A DNA stretch of 64,000 nt, from the IMG/VR virus record IMGVR_UViG_3300048606_000091, one strand, 5' to 3'. The stretch comes from a virus. Made by a program: the position numbers and the translations under genes. This document shows positions 2,571-47,689 of this stretch, piece by piece (within the stretch, counting starts at the first letter, position 1; every line of letters begins with the position of its first letter). The notes below the pieces were generated by a model. It made no database searches and was not told where the DNA came from. It saw only the letters and a list, made by a program, of their open reading frames with translations.

Positions 2571-2842
2571 GGCTGCACCGACCCTAGAACACGGAACTCG
2601 GCCATGCAGTCCGCACAGCGATAACGCTCGTCATTGAGATACCTGGTGCGCTTGACCAACCGCAGGCTGGCACACCACTTACACCTCGGCGCGTTCAGAA
2701 GATTCAACTGATCCATGGCTGCGGTAACCAGCTCACGCGCGTCGTCACCCTGGACGATGCCGTAACAGACGTCATTCAGGCTGAGCGCCACCGCACGCAG
2801 CTCTGCCAGCAGTACCTCTACAGGAGTTTTAGTGTTCGTCAT
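2567..2842 (-). CDS. hypothetical protein with CxxC-CxxC zinc ribbon, leaderless MTNT class
   Basis: CKWC..CADC; starts ATGACGAAC 6 nt below a TAGTAT box. Confidence 0.75.
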   Translation of the reverse strand: MTNTKTPVEVLLAELRAVALSLNDVCYGIVQGDDARELVTAAMDQLNLLNAPRCKWCASLRLVKRTRYLNDERYRCADCMAEFRVLGSVQP

Positions 2843-2848
2843 GCCTGC

Positions 2849-2877
2849 ATACTACCCTAGATAGGTCAGCAAGGCAA
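2849..2877 (-). promoter_or_regulatory. sigma70-type promoter, leaderless transcript
   Basis: TTGCCT-N17-TAGTAT-N6-ATG. Confidence 0.6.
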
Positions 2878-2882
2878 GCAAC

Positions 2883-3245
2883 TTAGTCATCCAACGCCTG
2901 CCGGTCACCCTTGACGTCGAACTGGGTCCAGGCCCGCATCGGCTGCTGACGATCGATGGCGACCCGCGCCTGCGCGACCGGCAGCCCGGTCAGCGTCACC
3001 AGGCTGTCCTCGGCCCGGATGCGCTTGGTGCGCTCGTTGCCCCAGAGCATGCCGAACACCACCGCGCCGATGATGCCCAGGAACGCCACCCCGAACACCA
3101 CGGTGAGCAGCACCATGGAACCGCTGTCGCCGGTGTTGTTGATGATGACCGGCGGAGCGGCCTGCTGTGGTGCCTGCTCACACGAAGTCAGAGTGACCAA
3201 CAACAAGATGGGCACAACCAACAGTGCTGGCAAGACACGAGTCAT
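2883..3245 (-). CDS. putative lipoprotein/membrane protein
   Basis: signal-like N-terminus with LTSC, second TM segment; GGGTAGTAC-N6-ATG. Confidence 0.7.
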   Translation of the reverse strand: MTRVLPALLVVPILLLVTLTSCEQAPQQAAPPVIINNTGDSGSMVLLTVVFGVAFLGIIGAVVFGMLWGNERTKRIRAEDSLVTLTGLPVAQARVAIDRQQPMRAWTQFDVKGDRQALDD

Positions 3246-3556
3246 GACTCGGTACTACCCCACCGAATCACCCGGGCGGGCAACCAGAGCTTGACCACGG
3301 TCGACCAAGGGTGCACGCGCGGCATATCGCTCTGGTGCCAGCCGTCCTTCAGACGCTCCAGTTGAAAGGACGGCTCTTGCGACAACGACTCCAGCAGGCT
3401 GCCCAGCGGAGGCTCGGACGGCCACTTGATCAGCTTAAATGTCTTGTCAACCGTCGAAAACTCAGCCCGGTGCGTGCCCACGGCATCCTTGACCCACTGC
3501 GGAGCGGGCGGAACCACACGCTTGGGCGGCACCAGACCCTCGTAGCCGACCATCAC
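3242..3556 (-). CDS. hypothetical protein
   Basis: ORF track; GTGA overlap with upstream stop at 3553-3556. Confidence 0.6.
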   Translation of the reverse strand: MMVGYEGLVPPKRVVPPAPQWVKDAVGTHRAEFSTVDKTFKLIKWPSEPPLGSLLESLSQEPSFQLERLKDGWHQSDMPRVHPWSTVVKLWLPARVIRWGSTES

Positions 3557-4179
3557 AAGCCCTCGCGCTTCGCCTTGGCCACACCACAGTCCGGAGCACA
3601 CGTGTCAGAATCACAGCGCGGATCGTGGTCGGGAGCGAAGTGCCGAGCCAACTGTGTCACCCGGGTGGCGAGCAGCTCGTTGTGGCGGCCATTGGCGATG
3701 CTTCGAATCAAGATAGCCAGCGTCTCGGCAGCGTCTTGCTCAAGATCAGAGTCCCCTCGGTCCAGCACCAGCGTGGCACGGAACAAAAGATCCTTATCCG
3801 CATCACTCAAGAAGTAAGAGATCGGAAACTCGTCAAGGTCTGGCACAGCCCGAGTCGCGCGCACCACCTCGTTGTAGCGCTCCTCGGAGAGCTGCCACAC
3901 GTGGATATCTGGGCCACCACGCGGATCACGTATCACCGCCGTGCCCAACCGATTGGCACGGAGATTCTGTCGCAGCGACGAACTCACAGCGGCGTCCAGG
4001 TGCTTGTTCAGCGGCGAGCCGGAGGGAAGCTTCTTCCACTGCCACATCGGACGACGACCACGCATGATCCGCATGCAGATCCAACGCGCACCACAACCCG
4101 GATCGGGGCAGTCCCAGCGCCGCTCGTTCCACGAGCCCTCGGTGGTGAACGGAGGCAGGTTACACAAGTCCTTGCTCAC
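3553..4179 (-). CDS. hypothetical protein with Cys motifs
   Basis: CPDPGC and HDPRCDSDTC; GTGA overlap at 4176-4179. Confidence 0.65.
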   Translation of the reverse strand: MSKDLCNLPPFTTEGSWNERRWDCPDPGCGARWICMRIMRGRRPMWQWKKLPSGSPLNKHLDAAVSSSLRQNLRANRLGTAVIRDPRGGPDIHVWQLSEERYNEVVRATRAVPDLDEFPISYFLSDADKDLLFRATLVLDRGDSDLEQDAAETLAILIRSIANGRHNELLATRVTQLARHFAPDHDPRCDSDTCAPDCGVAKAKREGL

Positions 4180-4793
4180 AGCTCCTCCTCGACACAGTTC
4201 AGGCACAGCCGGTTCCGGTCATCCCACTCCTCCGAGCGGCACTCCCCGCACGCCAGGGCACCACAGTCCATGCAGTTATCCCGCAGCGGGTTGCACGTCG
4301 GGGGATCCGCGTTCGCATGCGCGCCACCGAACCCGCCATAGCCGGCCGGGTCCTCGCAGTTCTCCCACACCACACCGCAGTGCTCGTACTCCAGCAGCTC
4401 GCCGGTCAGAGGATCCGCGACCGTGTCAACCTCGTAGTGGGATTGTACCCACGCGGTCAGGGAGGGGTGCACCGGCTGCTCGTCAGCCTTGAGTGCGGCG
4501 GCATCGTAGAGATCGAGCCGCTCCGCGATGCGCATGGTCTGATTGGGCGCCTGCTCACGCTCCATGGTCGCCATCGCGCCCGCGCAGAACCGGTCACCCG
4601 GACCGGGGACCATGGCCCCGTCCTCAGCATCGGAGGGGACGGTGGTCTCGTGGCAGGAAAAGATCGAGCCACCGCGCAGCGCGGAGGCGATCTCGGCGGC
4701 GCGATCCGGGCGCAGGTACGGCTCGATGTCGGTCCGGAACGGACACTTCGCACACGGCTTCTTCAGCCGGTAGGTCATCTTGGTGTTCGTCAT
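4176..4793 (-). CDS. Cys-rich protein (DUF6283-like PCxxCPFR...CH...CAG), leaderless MTNT class
   Basis: PCAKCPFR, FSCHE and FCAGA motifs plus C-terminal CxxC pairs. Confidence 0.7.
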   Translation of the reverse strand: MTNTKMTYRLKKPCAKCPFRTDIEPYLRPDRAAEIASALRGGSIFSCHETTVPSDAEDGAMVPGPGDRFCAGAMATMEREQAPNQTMRIAERLDLYDAAALKADEQPVHPSLTAWVQSHYEVDTVADPLTGELLEYEHCGVVWENCEDPAGYGGFGGAHANADPPTCNPLRDNCMDCGALACGECRSEEWDDRNRLCLNCVEEEL

Positions 4794-4799
4794 GCATGC

Positions 4800-4829
4800 A
4801 TACTACCCAGCAACAGGGCAGCATGTCAA
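4800..4829 (-). promoter_or_regulatory. sigma70-type promoter, leaderless transcript
   Basis: TTGACA-N18-TAGTAT-N6-ATG. Confidence 0.7.
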
Positions 4830-4842
4830 GCAAGTCAGCAGA

Positions 4843-5076: not shown

Positions 5077-5101
5077 GCATTAGTATTCGGGCACCAAGCC
5101 C

Positions 5102-5933: not shown

Positions 5934-5955
5934 ATGTCTTATTCAATTGTTGGAG

Positions 5956-6026
5956 AGCCGCAGTCAGGAATCGGACCTGAGTCGATCGTTTACGAGACGA
6001 TTGCTCGACCACTGAGCTACTGCGAC
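5956..6026 (-). tRNA. tRNA-Thr(CGT)
   Basis: acceptor GTCGCAG/CTGCGGC, stem ATCGT/ACGAT, loop CT-CGT-AA. Confidence 0.88.
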
Positions 6027-6057: not shown

Positions 6058-7185
6058 TGGTAAGTCGTGTGGGGAGGCAAGGGACGCACAAGGGCAGGGA
6101 AGTCAAAAGGGGTAGGAGGGTACGGGGCGCAAGGGGAAGTCGGATGGATTGACGGGGGCACGATCAGGAAAGTCGGGTGGGGATGAGCCGGCGATGGCGA
6201 GGGAAGTCGGGCGGTGGGGGGTGGGATTGGCGAGGGTTGTCGGCTGGAGCGGGTGGGACCGGCGGAGACAGGGTAGTCGGGCGGGCCGGAAGGGCGTGTC
6301 ATGGCACGACCTGGGAAGTCGAACAGGGCGGGGCCGGGTCGAGTTGCGCAGGGTAGTCATACGCGGTGGGACGGTGTGGTACAGCGCGGAAGGTCGGCGG
6401 GGCAGGGTCGGAGAAGGACGGGTAGTCGTGTTGGCTGGCAGTGGGGAGGGACGCTAGGGCAAGGATTGTCATGGGGGAAGTACGGGGATGGGCCGACGCC
6501 GGATAGTCGGAAGAGAAGCCGTGGGTTATCAGGTGACGAGTTGTCGATTCGGGAAGAAAGGGACTGGCCGGAGGAGGTTCGTCGACAAGAGTGGGCCCGG
6601 ATCGCGGAGGTCCAGAGTAGTCAGACGGGGTGGGCAGGGGCGAGATAGGACAGCCAAGTCGGCGGAGTTGGGCGGGATCGCGGGGCCTCGGCTCGGGAGG
6701 TGTAGTCATTCGGGATGGGTGGGACGGGGAAACGGGGGGTTGTCGCGTGGCGAGAACTGAGAGGGCGAGGGGAGTCGGGTGGCGCGGGCTGGGAGGTGCA
6801 GGGGAGAGGGCGAGTAGTCGAAATGGGAAGGGCTGACGGTGGGTTGGGAAGTCGTGGGGATGTGGGACGGCGCGGCGATGGTGGATCTGGTCCGTCAAGC
6901 GGGCTGAGCGGGCACGCATTGGGAAGTCACGGGGATTGGCGGGATGGGGCGCGCGTTGCCACGTCGAGCGGGGAAGGCCGGGACTGAGACGGGTAGTCAC
7001 GCGGGCTGAGCGGGCACGCGGCGCGAGGGCCGGGGAAGTCGGGTGGGACGCAATAGGCGAGGGCCGGGTTGTCACAAGGACAGGCCGGATCTGGTTAGCG
7101 TTGTCGGGGCGGGATGGATCGGCATACGGCGGGAAGTCACACGGGTCGGAAAGGGATGGCACGGGACGGGTCTACTTGTCGTGCG
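6058..7185. repeat. pentamer-phased repeat array 1 (about 30 units)
   Basis: 31 anchors GGGWWGTCR on + strand; manual spacings cluster at 32-34, 37-39, 42-43 and 47 nt; intervening DNA parses as GNNNN/GGNNN pentamers. Confidence 0.9.
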
Positions 7186-8209: not shown

Positions 8210-8674
8210 TTATGTCCTACCACGCGCGAGCCGGAACGCGGCGGTCAGCGTGCGGGAGATCGACTCGAACTCCTCGCACCACAACGTCGAACCCCGAGCC
8301 CAGTTGAGAGCCTCCACCACCGGCAAGCCCCACTCTCCGTCCACGACCAGCTCGAACGTCGTCCAGTCGATCGCGCCCGAGCGGCCGGTGCGCCAGTGGC
8401 CCCGATAGTTGTACTCGTCCATGTATTCCGCGAGCTTGATGCACTCCGCCTCGGTCAGCTGGATGCGATGCTTGAACGGCTCGTCATTGTCAAGGTCCCG
8501 TGCGCGGCAACTGGCCTTCGCTGCCGCGCGGGTCCACTTGAACAGCTCGTCGTCCTCATCCTCGGCGTCGGCCAGCACGTAGAACTCCGCAGCCAGCTCA
8601 CGCAGCTGAGCAGCCGCGAACGCCTGCGCCTCGGTGGGTCGCTGCACCTTCAGATCTAAGCGTGTGTTCGTCAT
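8210..8674 (-). CDS. hypothetical protein, MTNT class
   Basis: GGGTAGGAC-N6-ATGACGAAC. Confidence 0.75.
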   Translation of the reverse strand: MTNTRLDLKVQRPTEAQAFAAAQLRELAAEFYVLADAEDEDDELFKWTRAAAKASCRARDLDNDEPFKHRIQLTEAECIKLAEYMDEYNYRGHWRTGRSGAIDWTTFELVVDGEWGLPVVEALNWARGSTLWCEEFESISRTLTAAFRLARGRT

Positions 8675-8973
8675 GGTCGTGTCCTACCCCACGCTGGGAT
8701 CTCTTCACGAAAGGACGACCGAACAGACGGATCAAATCGCTGTGCCTCCACCGCTGCCGAGACCAACCGCTGGGCCAACGCGAGCGCTTCCGCTGGAGTG
8801 AACGACTTGGAGATCTCGAAATCGTTCATGTCCTCGTCATAGTACATGAAAGTGTAGTCAATCAGCGGGTCACCCGGGCGGAGCCAGAGCGTGACGTCGC
8901 CCTCGAACCCCACGTCAATGCCCTCCAGAGACTCCGTGCCGGCCAACAGAGGGACTGTGATGTCACGATTCAT
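8671..8973 (-). CDS. hypothetical protein, paralog of N-terminal half of 8963-9568
   Basis: GGAGG RBS before ATG 8973; TPAEALALAQRL motif. Confidence 0.7.
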   Translation of the reverse strand: MNRDITVPLLAGTESLEGIDVGFEGDVTLWLRPGDPLIDYTFMYYDEDMNDFEISKSFTPAEALALAQRLVSAAVEAQRFDPSVRSSFREEIPAWGRTRP

Positions 8974-9568
8974 GATCGTGTCCTCCAAAGACGCCGAAGC
9001 CGTTCTGGACCACCCACGTCTCGACGACCAGCTTGGACAGGTACAGCCCGCGCGCATCGCCGGGTCCGTCTCCGGTCCACAAGCGGAACACCTCAGCCAG
9101 CCGCGCGTCATGCTCGCGGGCTCCCTCAGCGCCGGTAAAACGGGCCAATCGCAGAGCCTTGATCAAGTAGATCTTCAGCGATGACGTGTCCGGCTTGGAC
9201 TTCACGACGGCGCTAAGCATCAAGTCAACCGACGCCGCGTCCGAGATCACCTGCTCAGCAGCCGCCTCAGGAACGATCGGGTGCGAACCCGGAGCACGCG
9301 AGGTGCTCTCCACCGCTGAGAGCAGCCGCTGGGCCAGCGCGTACGCCTCCGATGGAGTCATGTACTTGGTGACCTGATGCTCGTAGTCATCCATATCGAT
9401 CCAAAGGAAACGCAGCTCCACCTCGGGACCGCCGCCGCGATACCAGGCGACTACATCCTCGTCGAACTGCACACGAGAATGGGAGACGTTGCCCAGACCA
9501 CGGCCACCAGAGCTGCTGGAAACGGGAAGGACTAGGGGCACTTCAACGGTGCGATGTGTGTTCGTCAT
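8963..9568 (-). CDS. hypothetical protein, leaderless MTNT class
   Basis: TTGCTA-N18-TAGTAT-N6-ATGACGAAC; TPSEAYALAQRL motif. Confidence 0.75.
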   Translation of the reverse strand: MTNTHRTVEVPLVLPVSSSSGGRGLGNVSHSRVQFDEDVVAWYRGGGPEVELRFLWIDMDDYEHQVTKYMTPSEAYALAQRLLSAVESTSRAPGSHPIVPEAAAEQVISDAASVDLMLSAVVKSKPDTSSLKIYLIKALRLARFTGAEGAREHDARLAEVFRLWTGDGPGDARGLYLSKLVVETWVVQNGFGVFGGHDHES

Positions 9569-9607
9569 GCCTACATACTACCACAAAGTCAGCAAGGATA
9601 GCAAGTG

Positions 9608-11061: not shown

Positions 11062-11486
11062 CAGCTGTTTCTCTCCTTCTCCACAGACTTCTTCACATTG
11101 GCGGCGACCGATGGATCGGCACCGCACATATGGCAGTTGCCACGATCGACCAGAGCCTTGTCCAACTCGAACTGTCGATTCTTCTCACTACGGCGGTCAG
11201 CAGCGCGCCGCTCCTGCACGTTGTAGCGCCACACACCCAAGAGAATGAGCAGCACCACCCCCAGGCAGATGGACAAGATGACGATGGCCAACCAGCCGGA
11301 CGACGGGATCCCGAGCACGTGGGTGTTCCATTCCTCGGCGCGCGCCAGATTCTTCTGATAGACGCTTTCCGCATCTCGGTGGATCTTCTCGACATCCGCC
11401 GGGGATGAACACCCGGATAGCGCAATCAGCGCGAGCACGGCGATGACAGCGGCCAGGCGGGCACCGAGAGCGCACGCGCGGATCAC
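11061..11486 (-). CDS. putative lipoprotein/membrane protein with C-terminal CxxC
   Basis: LSGC lipobox-like motif, second TM, CHMC. Confidence 0.7.
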   Translation of the reverse strand: MIRACALGARLAAVIAVLALIALSGCSSPADVEKIHRDAESVYQKNLARAEEWNTHVLGIPSSGWLAIVILSICLGVVLLILLGVWRYNVQERRAADRRSEKNRQFELDKALVDRGNCHMCGADPSVAANVKKSVEKERNS

Positions 11487-12181
11487 TTGTCGTCCTTCTT
11501 CTCACCCAGCTTGGTGTTGATGAAGTCCAGACCGCGCTCCGCGAATCCAAAGATCTTCTCCACGATGTCATCGACGGGATCGACATTGGGCGGTGGCGGC
11601 GTAACCGGAGTCTCGGTACTGGACTTAGTCATGCGGGCAGCGGTCAGCTTCCGGTTGAGAGTACTGACCTCTTCCTGCAGCAAGGAAATACGGGACTGCA
11701 GAACACCCTCCCGGCGAGCCGCATCGGCCAGCGTAGAAAGCTCGGCGCCGCGCAGCCGCACGATCTCATCGCGCACCGCAACCACCCGAGCGGTCAGCGC
11801 GCCAATGTCCTCGCCAGTGATGGCAGGCAGCGATTTGCCTCGACTCACCTCTTGATAGAAGTCGATGATCAGCTGCGCATCAGGTAGCGGGTGCGGCAAC
11901 ACCGGAGGAGAGACCGGCTGTGTGGGCGCCAGACGCGCTACCTTGCCGGCCAGCTGGCCAAGCTCGATGGCCAGATCCGCAGCCGCTGGCAAGCGCTCAG
12001 AGGCCGGGGCTGCGGCTTGAGCAGCCTCCAAGGCACGGACCATCTTCTCCCGGAGCGCATCAGCCTGCGCAGTGGATGTCCCGGAGCGGCCGGACGGGTG
12101 AAGGAATCCCGGAGCGGACCAGATGTGCGGATGGGCGGCAGCCAGTGCCGCATCGACCATGTCAACAGTGATGTTCGTCAT
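11483..12181 (-). CDS. coiled-coil hypothetical protein, MTN class
   Basis: GGGTAGGAC-N6-ATGACGAAC; heptad region near C-terminus. Confidence 0.75.
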   Translation of the reverse strand: MTNITVDMVDAALAAAHPHIWSAPGFLHPSGRSGTSTAQADALREKMVRALEAAQAAAPASERLPAAADLAIELGQLAGKVARLAPTQPVSPPVLPHPLPDAQLIIDFYQEVSRGKSLPAITGEDIGALTARVVAVRDEIVRLRGAELSTLADAARREGVLQSRISLLQEEVSTLNRKLTAARMTKSSTETPVTPPPPNVDPVDDIVEKIFGFAERGLDFINTKLGEKKDDK

Positions 12182-12214
12182 GCCTCTGTCCTACCCTCTG
12201 AGCTGGAGATAGAA

Positions 12215-12251
12215 CAGCACCCCTCGATCATTTCAGAACCGAGGGGTGCTG
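12215..12251 (-). terminator. intrinsic terminator closing the RAMP unit
   Basis: 12-bp inverted repeat CAGCACCCCTCG/CGAGGGGTGCTG followed by TTCTAT on minus strand. Confidence 0.7.
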
Positions 12252-14605: not shown

Positions 14606-14677
14606 GCGAACGGAGGCGTTTAAGCGATGCCCCAGGTGGGGACTCAGACGCACCGGTACCTCAGCTCCGGCACCGAT

Positions 14678-14686
14678 GTACTACCC
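14678..14686 (-). promoter_or_regulatory. candidate promoter for array 2 / RAMP unit
   Basis: GGGTAGTAC with no start codon downstream, just below the helicase terminator. Confidence 0.5.
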
Positions 14687-14700
14687 AGCAAACAAAGGAA

Positions 14701-14741: not shown

Positions 14742-17351
14742 TTACGAATACATCTCGATGCGTTCCCGAGCCTCATCACTGATTGTCAAACCGAACTGCT
14801 GAGCAACCCGGAGCACATGCTGGTTGGCGAGGACAACGCGGACCTTCGCAAAGCCAGCCCACTCACCCCGGAAGCTGGAGCCGGGCAGGTCCGAAAGAAG
14901 CTCCTTCTGTGCCGCAACCAACTCCTTGCTGTATGGAGTGCCCTGCATGATAACGCGGTTGTCTGACTCAGGATCGATCATGAGCTGCGCGATCTGGATG
15001 CGCGGCCTGACCACCACTACAGCCCGTTCCGGCAGCTCAGCGGGAGCCAGGAACGTCCGGTCCACGTCGGCCAACCAGGACAGCGCGGAAGAGTCGAGAA
15101 CCTCCTTAGCGCGTGTCACGGCCACATATGCCAGCCGCAGCTCCTCGTCTGGCATGCCTCCCAGGTCGTACTCCTCCGGATTGGGGAAATCGCCTGCTAG
15201 TTGAACTCGATCCCATTCCTTGCCCTTTGCCTTGTGTGCGGTGCTGATCAGCAGCTCGGCGCCCTGCTCCGGGACGGCCTGCGCCACCGCGTCGAGCAGC
15301 TTCTCCGCGCCATGCGTGTCTACCAGCTTGACCAGTACCTTCAGCTGGCCCGCGTCGGCGGCATCCTCCACGTACTCCTGCACCTGACGCCAGGTGTCGA
15401 AAGCGATCAGGTCCGGGTGGGTGGTGGGCCGACCAAGGGTCAGATCCAACGCTGCCTTGGCCAGATACTCCACCTGCTGCGTGCCGCCGACCAAGCCGGT
15501 CTGAACGCCCATGAGCTGACTTTCCATCAGCCGGCCGATGGCGGCAGCGTTCGTGCGGGTCAGCACGGTGTCTGGTGCGTCCAGGTGCCCGAGCACCGAG
15601 TGCACCGGGTCGTGGCCCTCCACCCGGAGCGGGGTGTCCAGCCACTCCAGGATGCGGTTGGCCTCGTCGGCGATCGCCGAGCCGAAGCGGAACGACTTGG
15701 TCAGCGGAAGACGGTGCGGGGTGTCATACATGTTGAGAGAATCGACTGCCCCTCTCCAGCTGTTGTGCGTGAGGATGCCATCAGCAAAGTAGGTGTGGCA
15801 ATCCTCCACCTCCAGGGAAATCACGTCATCGTCGTAAGGGCGACGAGTGACAATCACAGGGCGCCAACTCTGGATGGGAGCCCTACGCTCGCGGAGTCGA
15901 TCCGCTTCCACCGTCTCCCCGATGGGCAGCATGCGCATGCCGTCCATCAAATTGGCTGCAGCCGTGGTAACAACCGAACGAAGCCCAATCGGAGTTCCGG
16001 CAGCAAACAGCGGATAGTCCGCCAGCCGACCGAATGCAGACAAGCATGACTCTCCATACACAGCGTTAGAACCAAGCTGCTTCCAGAACTCTACGTTATC
16101 CAACTTTCCGGAACCGTGATAAACAAAGCAAGCATCGGGGATGTTGAACCGAGCAGAGACCAAAGCCTCTTCGAGCGCAGCCTCCTCGGCCGTGTCGTGC
16201 AGAGACAGGATCCATCCAGCATCGGCACCCTCAGCGTTGAGCCTCAGCTTCAGGCCAAAAGCGCCATTCACCGTCTCGTACACAAAAGGAACTCGGCCGA
16301 CTCGGTACTGATCACCTCGACGCATGATATACACAGCATGCTTGCCGCGAAGCTCATCACCAAATCGAACCATAACATGGTGCTTCTCAGTGTACTCAGA
16401 CTGCTGAGAAGTGTCGGTAGTAGCACGAACTAGATCACCGGTATAACGGAATCTGGTCACACTCGAAATGGGACGTCCAGTCAGAAAGACACGACGATCC
16501 TTATAAGCCACAACCTTGTCACCAACCTGCAGCTCATCAATACGACGAATTACAGTCCGCATGCCGTATGACGGAACTTCCACCATCGTGCTAATAGGTT
16601 GGCAGTAGATCTGCTGATTTGTGTCACCTATTACTAAAATCTGAGCACCACGCTCGGAATTCTGTCGGTCCACGATCAGCTTGGTGACAGGGTTAATATC
16701 CTGAGCCTCATCCATGATGATGAGATCGCCAGGCAGCCGGCAGTAGTCGGACAGGCTGAAAATCTTCAGGTACACGTCGTGGTGAAATCGAAGCTGACCC
16801 TTGTCCGACTTCAGATCCTCCCAGGCACGCTGCACGAACGGCAGCAGGAACACCCGGAACGCGTCGAGGGCCGCCGGGGTGTCCAGACCGGGGACCTTGG
16901 GGATCATCCAGCCCTGCGGCTCCGGCTCGGCGGAGTGGCAGAACCGGGTGACCGCCTCGGAGACCAGCGTCGCCAGCTTGGTGTCGCGCATACGGAACAG
17001 GCCAAACCGAAAGTCATCCGGCAGGCGCAGGATCTGAGCCTGCTTCCACGCCGGCACGAACCCGCCGGTGTCCAGGCGAGCCTTCAGCGCTGGGCGCTGG
17101 GTCATGACCGAGCGGAACGCGAACGAGTGCGAGGTCCGGGCGGTGGTGTTGTTGGGGAAGCGACGGGCCGCCTCATCGGCGATGGGCCTGTTGAAGGCGA
17201 CGTACGAAATCTGGCGGCGCGGGTCATCCTGCGCGGCCAGCAGCGCGGTGCTCGTCTTACCGGCGCCAGCCAGGGCATCGACCACGACGGTCTCCCCGGT
17301 TCGCACGGCAGATCGGATCGCATCCTGCTGAGAGGTGGGCTGGAAAGCCAC
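14742..17351 (-). CDS. SF1 (UvrD/Rep-like) helicase containing an intein
   Basis: AGAGKTS Walker A, DEAQD Walker B, GDTNQQIY/SWRGA motif III, AYVAVTRAK motif VI; GTG 17351 after AGGAG. Confidence 0.9.
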   Translation of the reverse strand: MAFQPTSQQDAIRSAVRTGETVVVDALAGAGKTSTALLAAQDDPRRQISYVAFNRPIADEAARRFPNNTTARTSHSFAFRSVMTQRPALKARLDTGGFVPAWKQAQILRLPDDFRFGLFRMRDTKLATLVSEAVTRFCHSAEPEPQGWMIPKVPGLDTPAALDAFRVFLLPFVQRAWEDLKSDKGQLRFHHDVYLKIFSLSDYCRLPGDLIIMDEAQDINPVTKLIVDRQNSERGAQILVIGDTNQQIYCQPISTMVEVPSYGMRTVIRRIDELQVGDKVVAYKDRRVFLTGRPISSVTRFRYTGDLVRATTDTSQQSEYTEKHHVMVRFGDELRGKHAVYIMRRGDQYRVGRVPFVYETVNGAFGLKLRLNAEGADAGWILSLHDTAEEAALEEALVSARFNIPDACFVYHGSGKLDNVEFWKQLGSNAVYGESCLSAFGRLADYPLFAAGTPIGLRSVVTTAAANLMDGMRMLPIGETVEADRLRERRAPIQSWRPVIVTRRPYDDDVISLEVEDCHTYFADGILTHNSWRGAVDSLNMYDTPHRLPLTKSFRFGSAIADEANRILEWLDTPLRVEGHDPVHSVLGHLDAPDTVLTRTNAAAIGRLMESQLMGVQTGLVGGTQQVEYLAKAALDLTLGRPTTHPDLIAFDTWRQVQEYVEDAADAGQLKVLVKLVDTHGAEKLLDAVAQAVPEQGAELLISTAHKAKGKEWDRVQLAGDFPNPEEYDLGGMPDEELRLAYVAVTRAKEVLDSSALSWLADVDRTFLAPAELPERAVVVVRPRIQIAQLMIDPESDNRVIMQGTPYSKELVAAQKELLSDLPGSSFRGEWAGFAKVRVVLANQHVLRVAQQFGLTISDEARERIEMYS
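15762..16604 (-). mobile_element. intein (281 aa) in helicase motif III
   Basis: begins Cys (CQP), ends THN followed by Ser; lower GC than flanks; removal restores QQIY-SWRGA. Confidence 0.9.
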
Positions 17352-17401
17352 GGTAGCTCCTGGGTTCTGGCGGATTTGCCTCCGCACTCGGTGATGAAAA
17401 G

Positions 17402-17430
17402 ATACTACCATGCTCGCATGTTGCTTGCAA
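17402..17430 (-). promoter_or_regulatory. sigma70-type promoter of helicase
   Basis: TTGCAA-N17-TAGTAT. Confidence 0.6.
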
Positions 17431-21648: not shown

Positions 21649-21657
21649 ACTCGCATA

Positions 21658-30754: not shown

Positions 30755-30822
30755 GATGCTGTCATACCCCCCACAATAGAAATGACCTCTCACTGAGTAA
30801 GAGGTCATTTCTAGTCTTCGGT

Positions 30823-37008: not shown

Positions 37009-37307
37009 GAAATCTTTTCTCTGACTTCCCGCACGGCTTGCATGGCACTCTTCATCATCGGATCGCCAGCCGATGTCACCCACGCCTCGTCGTTGGCACG
37101 GGCCTGGCGTTGGTTGGCCGCGATCAGCAGCTGCGCCATCCGCGACAGGATCATGTAGCGCAGCTGCAGCGGGATTGCCTCTACCTTCTCTCGGGGGATC
37201 TTCCAATCCACCATGAGCCGGTCGAAGTCAGAATCACCCAACTCCACCACCGGCCTACTCCATGTGCTGTCCGGCATCTCAAAGCTCGTACCCTCAGAAA
37301 CCTGCAT
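37005..37307 (-). CDS. hypothetical protein
   Basis: ORF track. Confidence 0.65.
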   Translation of the reverse strand: MQVSEGTSFEMPDSTWSRPVVELGDSDFDRLMVDWKIPREKVEAIPLQLRYMILSRMAQLLIAANQRQARANDEAWVTSAGDPMMKSAMQAVREVREKIS

Positions 37308-37316
37308 GAATCCGTA

Positions 37317-39371
37317 CTACCCTACGGAAGCAAGCTCAGGCTCAGCGACAGCCGGCTGATCTTTCTTAACTGGCAACACGATCTGATTGTTCTCGTCAAG
37401 CTTCAATTTCTGCATCGAACCCCAGCGGACGCCTACCTCCCAGTCCGCGCGCAGCTGTGGCCAGCCCGGAATGGGGAACACAACCTCCGGCTGCACCACA
37501 TCGATCACCTCTTGCGGGTGCACCGACGTCTCCACCTCGAAGACCAGCGCGTCGTGGATGTTCATGATCAGGTGCACGCGTCCCCGCAACGGCGACTTCT
37601 TCAGCGCATTGGTGCATCGGATCATGGCGATCCGCATGATGTCCGCCGCGCCGCCCTGCACGGGAGCGTTCACGCACAACCGCTCACCGTTGGCACGGAT
37701 CGCCGGCTTGTCCGACTCCAGCGCCCAGATGGGGTGGATGCGTCCGAACTTCGACATGGTCCGACCGTGCGCTACTCCATCCTTTGTCTGCTTGTCTACC
37801 CAACTCTTTACCGAAGAGTAGATAGCGAAGTACTTCTGCAAGAACGCCTTAGCTTCGTCGATCGAGATGCCCATGCGTTCGGACATGCCCTTTGGTCCTT
37901 GTCCGTATAACAAACTGAAGTTGATCGTCTTACCAATGGAACGTTGTTCCTCAGTTACTTGGTCGAACGGAATGCTGAACATCAGAGCAGCAGTCATCTG
38001 GTGAACATCATCGTTATTGTTGAACGCCTTCACCAGAGCCGGCTCGCCAGACAGGCCCGCGAGCACGCGCAACTCCACCTGGCTGTAGTCAAACCCGATC
38101 AAGTAATGCTTATCCGCAGCCATGACAATGTCACGGAACTTCAAGCTGAACTCAATACCATTGTCTAGCTTGTAATAGTACTTCTTGGGAAGCTGCTGGT
38201 ACGCGGGGTCCGACACCGCAAACCGACCCGAGACAATCGCGCACGCCTGATGGCTGGGATGTCCTCGTCCATCATCAGCATAGTTGAAGTCGCGCGGGTA
38301 CTTGGTCAGATAGGACCCGGAGAGCTTGCGCAGCTCCCGCCAGTTCAGGATCTTCTGCACCACCGGATGCTTCTTCGCCAGGCCGGACAGTGCCTTAGCG
38401 TCGGTGCTCATCTCACCTTTCTCGGTGAGCTTGGTCGTCTTCAATCCCAACTTCTGATACAGCACACCACCGACCTGCGGGGCGGACCCGAGGTTGATGT
38501 CGATCACCTCACCGACCAGCTCGCTCAAGTCATGCATGATCTCCGAGCGGAGCGCGGCGTTGAATTCGAGGGCGCGCTGATCCCACCGGGACATGGTCGC
38601 CCAGTCCATCGCGATGCCCCGGTCCTCCATGCTCGCCAGGATCGGCACCTGGCCCATGTCGACCTTGTACATCAGCCGGTCCTTGACGATCGGCCGGTGC
38701 TTGCGAGACAGCGCCAGACACCACGCCGAGTCCTCGCAGGCATAGGAGATGGTGCGCGCGTCCAGCTCCAGAGTGTTGAATCGCTGGCTCTTAGCTTGCT
38801 TGGCCGTAGCCTCTGGGAACAGGTCCGCGAACTCGGTCATCCGGTGCTGGAAGACATTCCAGGTGACCGACTTCAAACCGACCTCGATGAACTTGCCCAT
38901 CTCGAAACACTCGATCATGGAGTCCGAGAAGATCGGGAAATACCCGTTGGGCTCCAGACCGGCCTGGCGGAGTTCATCCTGGGTCAAATATTGACGAAAA
39001 AAGCTAGCAAGATGTCTTAACTCGAACAGACTGTTATGAGCAATTCCCTTACCGGAACCTAACAAGACCGCAAGTAATCTAGCGAACTCAGTGTTGTCTA
39101 CGTTATTCCCCACATCGTGACGCAGCGGAGTGTAGCGAGCCCAGGTCGGATGCCCGGAGAAGGACACTCCGACCACGAAGGAAGTCTCCGGGTGCAGCGC
39201 GTACTTCTCTTTGGGTGGTCCGCTATAGCCTGTTTCGATGTCAAACCCGAAACCGTCTTCAATGCCAGCTAGCTTGCTAAAGAGAACCTCAATTTGCGAG
39301 AGATCCGTGAGCAGACCAAAATCTACAGCCACGCTGGATTGCTCCACTTCCTTAACGAGACCGCACCGCAT
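37317..39371 (-). CDS. polA: family A DNA polymerase (3'-5' exonuclease plus polymerase)
   Basis: FDIET exo I, YACED exo III, DYSQVELRVLA motif A, RSIGKTINFSLLYG motif B, NIHDALV motif C. Confidence 0.93.
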   Translation of the reverse strand: MRCGLVKEVEQSSVAVDFGLLTDLSQIEVLFSKLAGIEDGFGFDIETGYSGPPKEKYALHPETSFVVGVSFSGHPTWARYTPLRHDVGNNVDNTEFARLLAVLLGSGKGIAHNSLFELRHLASFFRQYLTQDELRQAGLEPNGYFPIFSDSMIECFEMGKFIEVGLKSVTWNVFQHRMTEFADLFPEATAKQAKSQRFNTLELDARTISYACEDSAWCLALSRKHRPIVKDRLMYKVDMGQVPILASMEDRGIAMDWATMSRWDQRALEFNAALRSEIMHDLSELVGEVIDINLGSAPQVGGVLYQKLGLKTTKLTEKGEMSTDAKALSGLAKKHPVVQKILNWRELRKLSGSYLTKYPRDFNYADDGRGHPSHQACAIVSGRFAVSDPAYQQLPKKYYYKLDNGIEFSLKFRDIVMAADKHYLIGFDYSQVELRVLAGLSGEPALVKAFNNNDDVHQMTAALMFSIPFDQVTEEQRSIGKTINFSLLYGQGPKGMSERMGISIDEAKAFLQKYFAIYSSVKSWVDKQTKDGVAHGRTMSKFGRIHPIWALESDKPAIRANGERLCVNAPVQGGAADIMRIAMIRCTNALKKSPLRGRVHLIMNIHDALVFEVETSVHPQEVIDVVQPEVVFPIPGWPQLRADWEVGVRWGSMQKLKLDENNQIVLPVKKDQPAVAEPELASVG

Positions 39372-40618: not shown

Positions 40619-40906
40619 TCAGTCAGCGTGGTTATTCACTGAGTTCATGTCAATCAGTGACTGGACCACGATCCACTCCAGATCCTTCTTGTGGTCGATC
40701 TGCAGAGCGACCCAACGGAACCGGCGCTGCCAGCGGCCGAAGTCCTGGCGGGCCAGCATCGGGCCCTCGGTACGGATCCGCTCCAGCACGTGCAGGAACA
40801 CGCCGCTGGTCGGCATGGGCCCGGAGAGCTGATCGGTCAGCTCTTGCAGCCACTCCTGGCGGACAACCTGGGCGGGCTTGGTCTCTTCAACGGTGCTCGT
40901 CATCAT
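40619..40906 (-). CDS. hypothetical protein
   Basis: ORF track; TATGTT box and GCAAG-repeat element upstream. Confidence 0.6.
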   Translation of the reverse strand: MMTSTVEETKPAQVVRQEWLQELTDQLSGPMPTSGVFLHVLERIRTEGPMLARQDFGRWQRRFRWVALQIDHKKDLEWIVVQSLIDMNSVNNHAD

Positions 40907-40956
40907 GGCTTAACCCTAACATACCAGCAACAGGCAAGCAAGTCAGCAACACAAGA

Positions 40957-41142
40957 TTATCTATCGAACCGCAGGAACAACCGGCGGAGCAACGGTTGGT
41001 CAGCTTCCCACTCCTCGGCGTGCCGAGTGCACCGACCATCCACACCCGGACGGGCCATAGACCAGTCGATCTCTTCCGGACAAGTGTCATCGTTACCGAC
41101 GCACATGTCTCGGCCGAAGCGGGAAAGCGGTGTGTTCGTCAT
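40957..41142 (-). CDS. small Cys-rich protein, leaderless MTNT class
   Basis: TTGACT-N17-TAGGAT-N6-ATGACGAAC. Confidence 0.7.
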   Translation of the reverse strand: MTNTPLSRFGRDMCVGNDDTCPEEIDWSMARPGVDGRCTRHAEEWEADQPLLRRLFLRFDR

Positions 41143-41173
41143 ACAATTATCCTACCCAAGCAAGGCGAGCAAG

Positions 41174-41407
41174 TCAAGATTCCTGTTGCTCCAACGCGAG
41201 CGCGTACCCGATCGGCATGTCATCCGCGTCGGCTGGCGCCCACTTCGTGTCCGCCACTTCGAATACCTCCTTGCGAGGCTCCACCCCGGATTGACCTGGG
41301 ACGGAAACCGGCGGGGCTGGTGGGCCCAGTGGCTTGACAACGGTCCGCCGACCACGCGAGCGCGGGGGAGGTGGAACGATCGGCTTCTTATCCTCAGAAT
41401 CCGTCAC
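41174..41407 (-). CDS. Pro-rich small protein
   Basis: GGGTAGGAG-N7-GTG at 41407. Confidence 0.55.
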   Translation of the reverse strand: MTDSEDKKPIVPPPPRSRGRRTVVKPLGPPAPPVSVPGQSGVEPRKEVFEVADTKWAPADADDMPIGYALALEQQES

Positions 41408-41472: not shown

Positions 41473-41994
41473 CTAGTGTTCGTCGAACCAGATATCCACG
41501 GCTCGGCCGTCCAGACGCACGGTCTGGTTCAGCACGAACCCGGGAGAACAGCCACAGGAGCAGCCCGCCACCTTGCTGAACTTCACGGTGAGCGGCCCCG
41601 AAGTGGAAAGTCGCACGTCCACACCGGACTGGCGCAGCACCGACATCAGCAACGGCAGCTCCCGCTCCAGGCCAACCCGTGCCCCGACAACACCCTTGCG
41701 CTGGTGCGCGGCGAGCACCGGGCACTTGCCGGTCAGCGAGCCAGCCCCCTCTCGACGCATCGCATCGAGCACCAGCCGGGTCTCCTCAGGCGACCAGCTG
41801 GGCTCGTTGAACACCTCCAGCGCGCCGTACGCCCGAGCCTTGGAGTTGGACGCAACAGAACGCGTGTTGGAGCGCTGGGTCAACCACACACGGAAATCGA
41901 GCGTGTCCAGCGTCCACCTCTTGTAGAGGCGGTGCTCCTCCACGGAGACCAAGACGGGACCTTCGGAGGTGGTGAGTGTCTGTGTGTTCGTCAT
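41473..41994 (-). CDS. hypothetical protein with GCSCGCSPGF motif, leaderless MTNT class
   Basis: TTGACA-N17-TACTGT-N7-ATGACGAAC. Confidence 0.75.
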   Translation of the reverse strand: MTNTQTLTTSEGPVLVSVEEHRLYKRWTLDTLDFRVWLTQRSNTRSVASNSKARAYGALEVFNEPSWSPEETRLVLDAMRREGAGSLTGKCPVLAAHQRKGVVGARVGLERELPLLMSVLRQSGVDVRLSTSGPLTVKFSKVAGCSCGCSPGFVLNQTVRLDGRAVDIWFDEH

Positions 41995-42026
41995 GTCAGC
42001 AACAGTACAGCAAGTCAGACATGTTG

Positions 42027-42320
42027 TCAACGACCAGCAAGATATACCTGCCAAGCTCGCTCCGGATCCACGCCGGCACCCTCCGCCGCGATGATGATCC
42101 ACTTAGCGGTCTCCACCGCTCCCGAGAGCAGTGCCAGGTCCCGCTCGGAGTCAGCGGACATGCCTAGAGATTCGAAGATCTCCCCATACTTTTCACGAAA
42201 AAAATGAGGGTCAATGTCTTCTTCAGACTTCACCACAATGGGGAGCACGGCAGAAACCACCACGAATAAATCGTCACGAATATTCAGAGCACGGAGAATA
42301 GTAGACATCTTCGAATTCAT
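42027..42320 (-). CDS. hypothetical protein
   Basis: GAGGAG RBS before ATG 42320. Confidence 0.6.
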   Translation of the reverse strand: MNSKMSTILRALNIRDDLFVVVSAVLPIVVKSEEDIDPHFFREKYGEIFESLGMSADSERDLALLSGAVETAKWIIIAAEGAGVDPERAWQVYLAGR

Positions 42321-43509: not shown

Positions 43510-43815
43510 CTACCCCTCACCTATGATCGCTCGCTGCAGCGGGAAGATCCCGTGCGGCCCGAGCTGCGAAACCTTGTCCGCACGTATTAGTCCGTTCAAC
43601 GTGTTGACCAAGAGAATGTTACGGTCCCGCACGGAAAGGGTCAGAAGGTTGGGGTAGAGGACTAGCGCGGCTGCGTTCACGGCCTGCACCGGAGGCAGCC
43701 CGTTGTCCAGAGCTTCCACCGCTACGTTGATCGACTTTCGGACCGTGGTGGCGGGGAACCCCGGGAGTGCCTTGGTGAAGGCATCCACCTGCTGGTCAGT
43801 CGCTGTGTTCGTCAT
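43510..43815 (-). CDS. hypothetical protein, leaderless MTNT class
   Basis: TTGACA-N17-TATGTT-N6-ATGACGAAC. Confidence 0.75.
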   Translation of the reverse strand: MTNTATDQQVDAFTKALPGFPATTVRKSINVAVEALDNGLPPVQAVNAAALVLYPNLLTLSVRDRNILLVNTLNGLIRADKVSQLGPHGIFPLQRAIIGEG

Positions 43816-43979
43816 GACCCCAACATACCAGCAAGGCCAGCACTTGTCAACTGTGCTGGCCTTGCTAGACGAGAGATGAAAGACGGTAGATGTTGAGGAT
43901 GGCGGGAAAACTAGGATCTCTACCATTAGAAGGGTTAGAAGGAAGCGCTCCCATTGCCTCAACTACATACTACCCAGAG

Positions 43980-46169: not shown

Positions 46170-46260
46170 AGCAACTCCCAGCGTTCGTCTGTGGGCATAG
46201 CAACGGAAGAGAAGATCTTGTGCAACCGAGTTACGAGGGCGGGGTAGTTGTCCTACCCAA

Positions 46261-46419
46261 CTAACGATCACCCAACAACGAATCCAGGATGGCAGCGGCG
46301 GTCTCGCTTGCTTCTCGTCGCTGCCTGCGGGTCTGGCGATTCGGGTCCCGAGGACGGGTCAGCCACCACAACAACGCGAACACGGCCAGCGCCGACACGA
46401 TCCATAACAAGCCGGCCAT
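46261..46419 (-). CDS. small membrane protein
   Basis: GAGGAG RBS, TM helix, basic tail. Confidence 0.65.
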   Translation of the reverse strand: MAGLLWIVSALAVFALLWWLTRPRDPNRQTRRQRREASETAAAILDSLLGDR

Positions 46420-46697
46420 CACCGACCACTCCTCTCGCACTTGTTGTAGCAACCGGCGTGACGGGGCATGCGCGGCAGCGAGGCCACCAGCGCCCAGCCG
46501 GCCTCGGTCAGCTGACGGTCCGGGCCGCTGCCGTCCTCGCGCTCCGGGTTGGCAAAGCCGCGACGGACCAGACAGCGGTTGATCTGAATCGCGTGAGAAT
46601 GCGGGACCGGGACACACGGGTCGGTGCCCAAGTCCACCTCACGCAGGAAGCGCAGGTAGTCCAGTTCGAACTTGGTGGGGTTTCCGGTGTTCGTCAT
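46419..46697 (-). CDS. hypothetical protein, leaderless MTNT class
   Basis: TTGCTT-N17-TACAGT-N6-ATGACGAAC. Confidence 0.7.
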   Translation of the reverse strand: MTNTGNPTKFELDYLRFLREVDLGTDPCVPVPHSHAIQINRCLVRRGFANPEREDGSGPDRQLTEAGWALVASLPRMPRHAGCYNKCERSGR

Positions 46698-46900
46698 ACA
46701 AGAACTGTAACACAGGTCAGCAAGGCAAGCAAGTCAAAGTTTCACGGATCGGATACGCATCTGGCTGCACGCGTCCTTCGCCCGGATCTCGGAGAACTTC
46801 CTCTCGATCAGACTCCGTCTCTCGGGGCCAGCCACCTTGGACCACGGCGACCCCTGGCAACGGCTCTCTAGCACCCACCGATCAGCTATCATGACTCTCC

Positions 46901-47179
46901 TTAGAAGGTGTTGGTCTGGGTGTTGTTGTCACCGATCTGGATTCCTCGGCGAGCCTCGCGGGAGTCCGCCTGGTTCACCCCGTGCGCCGCGTGGTGATGC
47001 CCGGACGGGAAGGCCGTCAGCGCGTAGCAGCCTGGGCAGAGGTGCACCAGCATCCTTCCCTCCGCGCGGGGCGGGCCGGTGTAGGGCACGGGGTTGGGCT
47101 GAATCAAGAACCCGATGAACGGATAGACCGTGCCATCGGCTAGTCGGATGTCCAGTGTCTCGTCAGCAGAAGCGCTCAT
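46901..47179 (-). CDS. hypothetical protein with HLCPGC motif
   Basis: GGAG RBS; ORF track. Confidence 0.65.
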   Translation of the reverse strand: MSASADETLDIRLADGTVYPFIGFLIQPNPVPYTGPPRAEGRMLVHLCPGCYALTAFPSGHHHAAHGVNQADSREARRGIQIGDNNTQTNTF

Positions 47180-47199
47180 GTCTTACTCCAAAGATAGAA

Positions 47200-47228
47200 G
47201 TGGTCCTGGGTGTCATACCCAGGACCAC
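47200..47228 (-). terminator. intrinsic terminator
   Basis: 12-bp inverted repeat GTGGTCCTGGGT/ACCCAGGACCAC followed by TTCTATCTTT. Confidence 0.75.
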
Positions 47229-47236
47229 CAGAACGG

Positions 47237-47644
47237 TCAGGCGGTTACTGGCACCAGCTCGGGGTCATGTCCGGAGCGGCCACGACTGTCGTCGATGCGG
47301 AAGGCGACCCCACGGATGACCACCAGATCGCCCTCGGACAGCTCCTGCAGCCCGGGGTTATCCCCCGCGAAGCGACGGGCGGAGATGCACACGGAGTCCG
47401 GGATGAGAGCGGCATACGGACCAGGCAGGACCGGGCCATTCTGCACGCGACGGCAGGCGCCCTCCGGGCCGACGTACAGAATCGACCAGGTGAGCACGTG
47501 CCCCTGGTGCCGGCCGTAGAGACGGATCTTGGTGACGTCATCCCTGAAGCTGGGAGTGCCCCAGCTGTCCGGGCCGTAGCTGGAACGAGCCTCTACCTCG
47601 GCGATGTGGACTCGGGCGATGCGGGTGGTCTGTGTGTTCGTCAT
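47237..47644 (-). CDS. hypothetical protein, leaderless MTNT class
   Basis: TTGACT-N18-TACTGT-N6-ATGACGAAC. Confidence 0.75.
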   Translation of the reverse strand: MTNTQTTRIARVHIAEVEARSSYGPDSWGTPSFRDDVTKIRLYGRHQGHVLTWSILYVGPEGACRRVQNGPVLPGPYAALIPDSVCISARRFAGDNPGLQELSEGDLVVIRGVAFRIDDSRGRSGHDPELVPVTA

Positions 47645-47689
47645 GCAAGTACAGTAGCATGGCTAAGGCAAGCAAGTCAACAAATAAAA

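Follow-up and report, generated by a model that had tools for sequence, protein, structure and literature searches.

Introduction

Leaderless genes account for about a quarter of mycobacterial transcripts (PMC11532794), and the sequence downstream of their start codons is known to influence expression. In Escherichia coli, leaderless translation is enhanced by CA-rich bases that follow the AUG, in the account given by a recent review (PMC9031893, citing Martin-Farmer and Janssen, 1999), the first 18 nucleotides (nt) matter most in leaderless messenger RNAs (mRNAs) of Mycobacterium smegmatis (PMC11532794), and in Corynebacterium glutamicum the sequence following the leaderless AUG tunes expression across a wide range (PMC10367133). 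The basis of leaderless mRNA selectivity is nevertheless not understood, according to the same review (PMC9031893). Here, we describe a conserved start sequence, hereafter the block, in a 64,000-nt stretch of viral DNA (IMG/VR record IMGVR_UViG_3300048606_000091; the whole stretch is referred to as the window), in which 11 otherwise dissimilar genes open with the same word, ATGACGAAC, directly below a −10 promoter box, an arrangement first noticed in a sequence-only reading.

Leaderless actinophage promoters, start-associated repeats and mobile early-promoter cassettes are each already known. The leaderless SigA-type promoters predicted in Cluster O mycobacteriophages (PMC4351075) resemble those of the window in having a TANNNT box about 6–7 nt before the start and no Shine-Dalgarno sequence; such promoters also have, as here, an optional TTGACA-like −35 box at 17–18 nt and serve divergent or early units in phages of high-GC hosts. 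The known cases have no fixed coding sequence after the start codon, whereas here the 9–11 bases following +1 are more conserved than the promoter itself, in about 11 genes of the window and about 40 genes of a relative. The SAS/ESAS repeats of Cluster K (PMC3203893) are, like the block, short, asymmetric and gene-oriented, and are found at the starts of many unrelated non-structural genes; both SAS and block are absent from the host, prefer ATG and are suspected of involvement in translation initiation. The SAS, however, is a 13-base-pair (bp) sequence (GGGATAGGAGCCC) with a Shine-Dalgarno core, located 3–7 bp upstream of the start in leadered genes inside operons, whereas the block (ATGACGAACAC) lies inside the coding sequence from +1, has no Shine-Dalgarno core and is fused to a promoter; the two sequences are unrelated.

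The PeSL cassettes of T4-type phages (PMC2839356) place strong host-type early promoters together with terminator stem-loops ahead of the orphan genes of hyperplastic regions, as at several sites in the window, and in both systems the cassette is conserved while the genes differ between close relatives. A PeSL ends in a Shine-Dalgarno sequence and remains outside the gene, whereas the leaderless cassette described here includes the first codons; the host phyla also differ. As judged from sequence comparison, 5′ modules are swapped between orthologues. The CA-repeat and A-rich downstream enhancers of E. coli, which act on both leaderless and leadered translation (Martin-Farmer and Janssen, 1999, cited in PMC9031893), share with the window genes, many of which read ATGACGAACACACA, an A/C-rich unstructured sequence after the AUG (ACGAACACACA in six genes). 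Those enhancers are, however, compositional, whereas here a single exact word recurs, with an invariant G at +6 and with the synonymous A/C-rich alternatives left unused. Cluster A stoperators are asymmetric 13-bp phage-repressor sites spread genome-wide in the direction of transcription; their only likeness to the block is the orientation bias, and the block differs in its position at +1 to +11 and in its absence from transfer RNA (tRNA) promoters. A literature search for the word itself returned only unrelated primer sequences, and an open-access search, which does not amount to proof, yielded no description of a frozen coding word on leaderless phage mRNAs that is promoter-fused, swappable between orthologues and present across unrelated phages.

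A promoter-linked start block

The window contains 11 copies of ATGACGAAC where 0.59 would be expected, and none of 100 dinucleotide shuffles reached 11 copies, so that a chance origin is rejected. All copies are on the minus strand and each opens an open reading frame (ORF) of 61–232 codons, with the A of the ATG at 2842, 4793, 8674, 9568, 12181, 30754, 41142, 41994, 43815, 46697 and 47644; all 11 coordinates given in the sequence-only reading for starts reading ATG ACG AAC are correct. In nine of the 11 copies the identity extends to ATGACGAACAC. The −10 box that had been placed 6–7 nt above the ATG is equally regular: TA-NNN-(T/C) occupies exactly −12 to −7 (6-nt spacing) at 10 sites, with 41994 showing a 7-nt spacing, and its last base is T at eight sites and C at three (8674, 12181 and 30754). 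Eight sites carry, as had been counted, a TTG 17–18 nt upstream of the −10 box, and the other three lack a −35 box; a strict E. coli-type promoter scanner calls three of the eight. The shared upstream element is also real and is TTGC-rich, with 2.2 TTGC words per promoter against 0.13 expected, a 17-fold enrichment.

The base at −1 is a pyrimidine at all 11 sites (P=4e-4), and the distance between the −10 box and the ATG fits leaderless mRNAs, in agreement with the layout originally proposed. There is no Shine-Dalgarno sequence or leader at the block sites: the −10 box fills the position of the ribosome-binding site, and the few GGAG-like matches are the GGGTAGGA box itself. In-frame start codons also exist further upstream at 30754, 41994 and 43815, where the MTN start is supported by the promoter geometry and, at 30754, by the length of its homologues as well. 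Information content is highest at +1 to +10, exceeding that of the −10 box, and the −35, spacer and −10 parts vary more than the segment from +1 to +11. In the pooled logo, positions outside the site selection are still conserved (A at +10, 2.1 bits; C at +11, 1.5 bits). The block has no dyad symmetry.

Two classes of leaderless promoters

Leaderless starts, sought as a −10-type box 6 nt before ATG or GTG, number about 28 credible cases on the minus strand of the window, of which about 17, besides the 11, have other first codons. The block is present at 11 of the 28 leaderless starts and at none of the 41 Shine-Dalgarno-led genes (P=1e-5). Two promoter classes can be distinguished. Class 1, with 11 window sites, has a TTG −35 box, a TTGC-rich spacer (TTGACTTGCTTGCCTTGCTG at best) and a canonical TANNNT box, and looks like a host primary-sigma promoter. 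Class 2, with about 17 window sites, has the form GGG-TA(G/T)NAC (GGGTAGNAC), with C at the last −10 position and no −35 box. The block accompanies nine of the 11 class 1 sites and three of the 17 class 2 sites (P=0.0015).

Class 2 boxes (minus-strand examples are at 63186, 62421, 61499, 55369, 50334, 37307, 21373, 19898, 17602, 13766 and 3245) lie exactly 6 nt before ATG or GTG, mostly of conserved genes, and the family is common to the window and two uncultured relatives, G001 (IMG/VR 3300014205_005221; complete, 186,050 bp), which has many ORFs and the same promoter element in common with the window, and G005 (complete, 153 kilobases, kb), the polymerase of which is 60% identical to that of the window. 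One such box (GGGTAGTAC, 14686–14678, within 14660–14690 on the minus strand) is followed by a non-start, GCC..., and apparently drives a non-coding repeat region, which argues that it is a promoter element in its own right. Class 2 promoters may need a phage factor or an alternative sigma factor, perhaps as a middle or late class. In G005, at least 10 class 2 promoters read GGGTAG(G/T)AC-TGAGAC-ATG; no word is conserved at their starts, and ATGACGAAC is found nowhere in that genome, so the block is not shared by the whole phage group. The 17 other leaderless starts, a class 1 promoter without block at 49402 and the block-free G005 together indicate that the block is not needed for leaderless expression. 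A single uniform regulon, as proposed in the sequence-only reading, is thus not what we find, given two promoter classes and a block needed neither for leaderless expression nor for a class 1 promoter.

Class 1-type promoter matches in G001 carry the block in 31 of 40 cases, and in 31 of the 34 that precede ORFs. Two of the exceptions lie 9–11 nt upstream of the first tRNA of the two tRNA arrays, have no block, and their transcripts open with unrelated sequence. Because the same promoters fire without the block at tRNA arrays, the block goes with translated starts, and the idea that +1 to +9 form part of the promoter or operator is disfavoured accordingly.

Constraint on nucleotides

The conservation of the block acts on nucleotides. 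In the long genes of the window, ACG makes up 26.7% of threonine codons, ACA 10.5%, and AAC 74.6% of asparagine codons, whereas codon 2 is ACG in all 11 block genes (P=5e-7) and codon 4 is ACA in six of nine threonines (P=8e-5). G001 keeps ACG-AAC in 41 of 41 copies, with codon 4 being mostly ACC, which leaves ATGACGAACAC as the invariant core. The identity at synonymous positions pointed out from the sequence alone is therefore genuine (ACG 11/11 against 27% usage), and the same figures disfavour the accompanying suggestion of an MTNT peptide tag.

The 5′ ends of block mRNAs are open: the cost of opening nt 1–15 is 1.7 kcal/mol for the MTN genes of the window and 2.9 kcal/mol for the block mRNAs of G001, compared with 3.7 kcal/mol for other leaderless starts and 6.2 kcal/mol for internal coding sequences. 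Avoidance of 5′ structure as an explanation of the exact codons is, however, rejected, the native sequence having a mean rank of 16.7 among 32 synonymous versions against 15.5 under the null. Pairing with 16S ribosomal RNA (rRNA), the downstream-box idea, is likewise rejected, since the longest run is 8, including G-U pairs, which is typical of shuffled words; this comparison used the Microbacterium 16S sequence, the copy in the host bin being partial.

A phage-encoded tRNA-Thr(CGU), located at 5955–6026 (minus strand) in the window and at L175:6287–6358 in G001, reads only ACG, the invariant codon 2 of the block. A link between the two is weak: the window and G001 have the tRNA and G005 lacks it, yet it is also found in Microbacterium phage Magritte, which is essentially block-free.

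Block genes and exchange of 5′ modules

The genes that start with the block are not related to each other. Among 51 block-started proteins of the window and G001, 1275 comparisons yielded two true related pairs, which bears out the dissimilarity seen initially and rejects paralogy of the MTN genes. In Pfam and PHROG searches, nine of the 11 window block proteins had no family and the other two belong to families of unknown function. G001 has a homologue for two of the 11 block genes as opposed to 33 of the 57 other window genes (P=0.02), whereas class 2 leaderless genes are mostly conserved there (11 of 16). Nothing points to packaging, the block genes being early-region ORFans, and the proposed virion packaging tag is disfavoured.

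G001 contains 41 copies of ATGACGAAC, 37 of them with the promoter geometry, as against 0 and 4 for a reversed-word control. The copies are packed at about one per 300–450 bp at both genome ends, with others at 21–29 and 55–65 kb. Terminator hairpins lie directly upstream of the 47644 and 12181 promoters and directly downstream of gene 47644, a hairpin precedes the 30754 promoter, and a stem covers the −35 box of 43815; the other block sites have none within 60 nt. The terminator-flanked block genes are self-contained units.

Comparison of orthologues revealed an exchange of 5′ ends. The window, G001 and G005 all keep the protein body of the 30754 family (..RG-P/A-I/V-A..DMK..). At the 5′ end, the window has a class 2 promoter with MTNYKQG, G001 combines a class 2-like box with a leaderless start reading MAFDP, and in G005 the class 2 box comes with a short leader of the Shine-Dalgarno type. 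In the 40906 family, the block is intact in G001 and decayed in the window, and in the 47644 family, promoter and block are conserved between the window and G001, the proteins being 51% identical. Orthologues with other 5′ ends in sister phages indicate that the block is a module, about four codons in length, that can be swapped. The portable cassette of the sequence-only reading is thus upheld, the block residing on hypervariable ORFans, with orthologues that have other 5′ ends and with several units flanked by terminators.

Recurrence in other phages and host genomes

Scanning 2.9 million viral contigs for GGTA-N10-ATGACGAACAC yielded 54 loci, nine of which hold at least three further copies with the same promoter geometry. 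Sorted by the ORFs that they share, these multi-copy loci make up four groups or more, between which there are essentially no common proteins: group A comprises the window and G001; group B, G002 (105 kb, 72% GC); group C, G003, G004, L030, L031 and L033 (52–60 kb); and group D, L038 and L047 (71% GC). The −35 and spacer sequences vary between the groups, and codon 4 is often AAC (Asn) in group C, so that the feature in common is the bases A-M-C, not the residue. Among starts outside the locus selection, ACGAAC is present at 35 of 109 putative leaderless starts compared with 0.39% of control ORFs, and codon-2 threonine across the motif-selected loci is ACG in 44 cases and one of the other three codons in eight. 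In the same scan, a synonymous control, ATGACCAAC, gave one multi-copy lineage (L355) and a composition-matched permuted control, ATGAACACG, gave none. As a check for an ascertainment artefact of the motif search, the two control words produced 1 and 0 multi-copy loci versus 9; the recurrence of the word across unrelated phages exceeds that of the control words, with few independent lineages.

In the L355 phage (IMG/VR 3300001097_000004, 74.7 kb), roughly ten strong TTGACA-N17-TANNNT promoters stand in a row, each 6 nt ahead of a leaderless gene that opens with ATGACCAAC, ATGACCACA or ATGACAACC (MTN or MTT). These starts loosely read ATGAC and then an A/C-rich run, and show the same habit in a less strict form in a phage of unrelated type. 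The block is not a universal feature of leaderless phage promoters, a notion rejected by 0 of 133 in a motif-blind sample. As for cultured relatives, Huwbert has no copies and Magritte two.

No phage protein common to all block-bearing lineages was found by BLASTP at 1e-4, remote homology being left aside, and a shared phage protein as the reader of the word is rejected at that level. In 301 Actinomycetes genomes, the strict pattern had 84 matches (about 0.28 per genome, with a maximum of five), a tally that includes one match from the unpublished genome G269, on which no claim depends; the reversed control gave about 15 matches and the ACC sibling 57. In the metagenome-assembled genome (MAG) that contains G001, all 23 strict matches are on the phage contig and none elsewhere. 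A general host convention is rejected on these two counts, and the density of the word in block phages is more than 2000 times that in host chromosomes.

The complete 186-kb phage genome is scaffold 1 of this MAG, assigned to 'Candidatus Nanopelagicales' (L203, or contig C1 of G007; JBAYVO010000001.1), either as a binning artefact or as a hint to the host; the motif context on the scaffold is the same as in G001. The placement is a weak hint at a freshwater actinobacterial host.

Possible functions of the block

We put at about an even chance the reading that the block provides leaderless early mRNAs with a standardised initiation region at the 5′ end, which mobile promoter cassettes carry along. 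Under this scenario, the message of most transcription units in the window would begin on the start codon, and the class 1 cassette, on small, fast-changing orphan genes, would nearly always bring the fixed first 11 bases, AUGACGAACAC. In a leaderless mRNA, the 5′ AUG and first codons are the ribosome-binding region, so that a cassette for expressing whatever genes are captured has to carry those codons with it. The block could fix +1 on the A of the AUG, provide an open, A/C-rich 5′ end and offer a word suited to the 70S initiation complex, such that any captured gene would gain reliable initiation and pay for it with about four additional residues at the N-terminus (M-T-N-T). Transcription would then start on the A of the ATG, the block would act as an enhancer, and the genes would be expressed early, a timing suggested by their position and promoter type. 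Enhanced 70S initiation would be the option of the sequence-only reading that survives.

The reader of the word is probably the host translation machinery rather than a phage protein, given that four phage groups with essentially no shared proteins have the same 9-mer. Taken together, the results on RNA structure, 16S rRNA, shared proteins and tRNA promoters favour a role at the level of RNA and translation via the host machinery. A more specific variant, which we consider rather unlikely, is that AUGACGAAC is a 5′ recognition word that serves some actinobacteria as a 'Kozak or internal ribosome entry site (IRES) equivalent' for messages without a leader. Its dedicated reader, which might be a feature of the ribosome, an initiation factor or an RNA-binding protein widespread among hosts or phages, would license a whole set of early phage genes or later shut them off, and unrelated phages would for that reason have converged on the word or exchanged it.

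Several observations weigh against the block being a standardised initiation region. Four lineages, against one and none for the two control words, are suggestive, not conclusive. None of the 133 strong promoters of leaderless type in the motif-blind sample, which came mainly from low-GC phages, has a copy, and G005, Magritte and Huwbert manage without the block. Host genomes are not enriched beyond rough expectation (84 matches against 57 for the ACC sibling), whereas with a strong host optimum one might expect to see the word used there. The exact synonymous choice brings no better 5′ accessibility (rank 16.7 of 32), and complementarity to the Microbacterium 16S rRNA does not exceed chance, so that neither property supplies a physical reason for the exact word. 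Finally, the tRNA-promoter argument rests on two sites, and the host link on the MAG binning of a relative, which is weak evidence.

The block could instead be an operator at which a protein or a small RNA turns the early genes off, or on, as a set. It could act either on the DNA at +1 to +11 or, as a translational operator, at the mRNA 5′ end, comparable to the start regions of early mRNAs to which T4 RegA binds; we regard this as a rather improbable alternative. Conservation that is nucleotide-level, strand-specific and gene-independent would suit it, as would the confinement of the block to one temporal-looking promoter class and to phage, not host, DNA. RNA structure leaves the exact word unexplained, the TTGC-rich spacer, where a factor may bind, is conserved beyond promoter need, and the analogous Cluster K SAS repeats are suspected binding sites (PMC3203893). 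Yet the block-bearing lineages have an identical word and no common protein family at the BLASTP threshold given above, no candidate regulator was found among the window proteins, and the block lacks dyad symmetry. The class 1 promoters of tRNA arrays without a block count against an operator on DNA, not against one on mRNA.

It is quite unlikely, in our view, that promoter and block mainly form a recombination linker, a conserved junction at which homologous recombination shuffles orphan genes, with the block kept uniform by gene conversion and hitch-hiking. Block genes are the hypervariable fraction, and the 5′ module is exactly where orthologues diverge. Flanking terminators are present in several units, cassettes at the G001 genome ends are spaced by about 300–450 bp, a RecA-like recombinase is encoded by the phage, and PeSL cassettes offer a precedent (PMC2839356). 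However, gene conversion would be expected to make the entire cassette uniform, yet the −35, spacer and −10 parts are more variable than +1 to +11; nor does it account for one 9-mer that recurs in unrelated phage groups whose promoters differ, and an 11-bp patch is short for homologous exchange. Such a linker could also be a consequence of a standardised initiation region, with which it is compatible, and is in that sense not a true alternative.

A peptide signal, by which the N-terminus M-T-N-(T) would matter through methionine removal, threonine acetylation, stability or targeting, is very unlikely. The threonine at codon 4 is kept by different codons (ACA in the window, ACC in G001), L355 uses ATGACCAAC, ATGACCACA and ATGACAACC to encode MTN or MTT, and codon-2-encoded N-terminal acetyl-threonine has been documented in mycobacteriophage proteins (PMC4351075). 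Against this stand ACG in 11 of 11 window and 41 of 41 G001 copies versus 27% usage, with AAC never replaced by AAT, the 44 to 8 preference for ACG at codon-2 threonine across the motif-selected loci, and the frequent asparagine (AAC) at codon 4 in group C, which shares the bases A-M-C and not the residue. Moreover, the exact 9-mer is present in none of the 41 Shine-Dalgarno-led genes, and a useful tag would not be expected on leaderless genes alone.

Most improbable is a transcription element, in which the initially transcribed ATGACGAAC would aid start-site choice or promoter escape of the host RNA polymerase at very strong promoters: the fixed −10 spacing, the pyrimidine always found at −1 beside the +1 purine and the stronger-looking promoter class that the block accompanies would fit, but tRNA arrays and a few ORFs are driven by block-free promoters of this family, only 3 of 17 class 2 promoters have it, and we know of no such sequence-specific requirement of actinobacterial RNA polymerase.

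Dozens of unrelated genes in several unrelated phages that carry one 5′ word with frozen synonymous positions represent a natural experiment, and the block is a concrete, easily mutated candidate determinant of a good leaderless mRNA, testable in Mycobacterium, Corynebacterium, Microbacterium and Streptomyces. Should the block work as a start module whatever the context, high-GC bacteria would gain a useful expression part, and the module would explain how leaderless-gene phages capture new genes yet express them. It also helps annotators to call the true starts of small early genes in such phages.

Individual sites and other features of the window

The window represents the early and replication arm of a large, novel and uncultured virus of the actinophage type, a relative of which is about 186 kb long, and the host is probably an actinobacterium. 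A megablast search returned no near-identical deposited phage or close cultured relative; the nearest cultured polymerase to the PolA of the window is that of Magritte (38.6% identity). Nearly all genes are on the minus strand and include those for a family A DNA polymerase, a DnaB-like helicase, a RecA-like protein and a sliding-clamp beta subunit.

All sites below are on the minus strand. Class 1 promoters with an intact block lie at 2832–2884 (TTGCTTGCCTTGCTG, TAGTAT; block ATGACGAACAC), upstream of gene 2567–2842 (91 amino acids, aa), an ORFan with no family match, and at 4783–4835 (TTGACA, 18 nt, TAGTAT), upstream of gene 4176–4793 (205 aa; phrog_5443, of unknown function), where a consensus scan also calls the promoter. 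At 9558–9606, the promoter (TTGCTA..CTTGCTG, TAGTAT) directly follows a tRNA-Val and serves gene 8963–9568 (201 aa). Further sites are located at 41132–41184 (TTGACT, 17 nt, TAGGAT; gene 40957–41142, 61 aa), 41984–42036 (TTGACA, 17 nt, TACTGT, with the 7-nt spacing; gene 41473–41994, 173 aa, phrog_26333, of unknown function), 43805–43860 (TTGACA, 17 nt, TATGTT, with the stem overlapping the −35 box; gene 43510–43815, 101 aa) and 46687–46740 (TTGACTTGCTTGCCTTGCTG, TACAGT; gene 46419–46697, 92 aa). A complete cassette spans 47199–47724 and consists of a terminator (47689–47724), a class 1 promoter, the block, gene 47237–47644 (135 aa) and a second terminator (47199–47229).

Two class 1 sites depart from this pattern. 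At 40892–40950, upstream of gene 40619–40906, the block is decayed and shifted, reading ATG-ATGACGAGCAC with one mismatch, the G001 orthologue having the intact form, and at 49388–49445, upstream of gene 49085–49402, a promoter with a perfect TTGCTTGCCTTGCTG element and 7-nt spacing is followed by ATGAGCTTC and no block.

Class 2 promoters precede the block at 8664–8700 (GGGTAGGAC, no −35 box; gene 8210–8674, 154 aa), at 12171–12251, where a terminator hairpin (12215–12251) and GGGTAGGAC are followed by the block variant ATGACGAACAT (gene 11483–12181, 232 aa), and at 30744–30812, where a hairpin and GGGTATGAC lead to the block ATGACGAAC-TAC (gene 30548–30754, 68 aa). A class 2 site at 21637–21665 combines an GGGTAGTAT box with a near-block, ATGGCGAACATC, one mismatch away from the 12181 version (gene 21376–21648), and a class 2 leaderless promoter without block (GGGTAGTAC-N6-ATGCAGGTT, 37296–37325) precedes a gene conserved in G001 and G005.

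Known RNA families in the scan were limited to tRNAs, for which the window has seven genes; G001 has 40 (loci L174, L175 and L318), four of them tRNA-Met(CAT). Among the tRNA genes of the window, the segment 6100–7200 (minus strand) has equal G+C at the three codon positions, includes a 32-nt tandem repeat (6742–6806) and appears non-coding although a 287-codon ORF is present. Within the phage replication region, a 683-aa protein (50558–52609, minus strand) has a weak FtsK/SpoIIIE match and would be an FtsK-like ATPase. An 889-aa UvrD-type helicase (14742–17411, minus strand) shows a weak match to an intein-splicing domain at residues 290–550, splitting the ATPase motifs.

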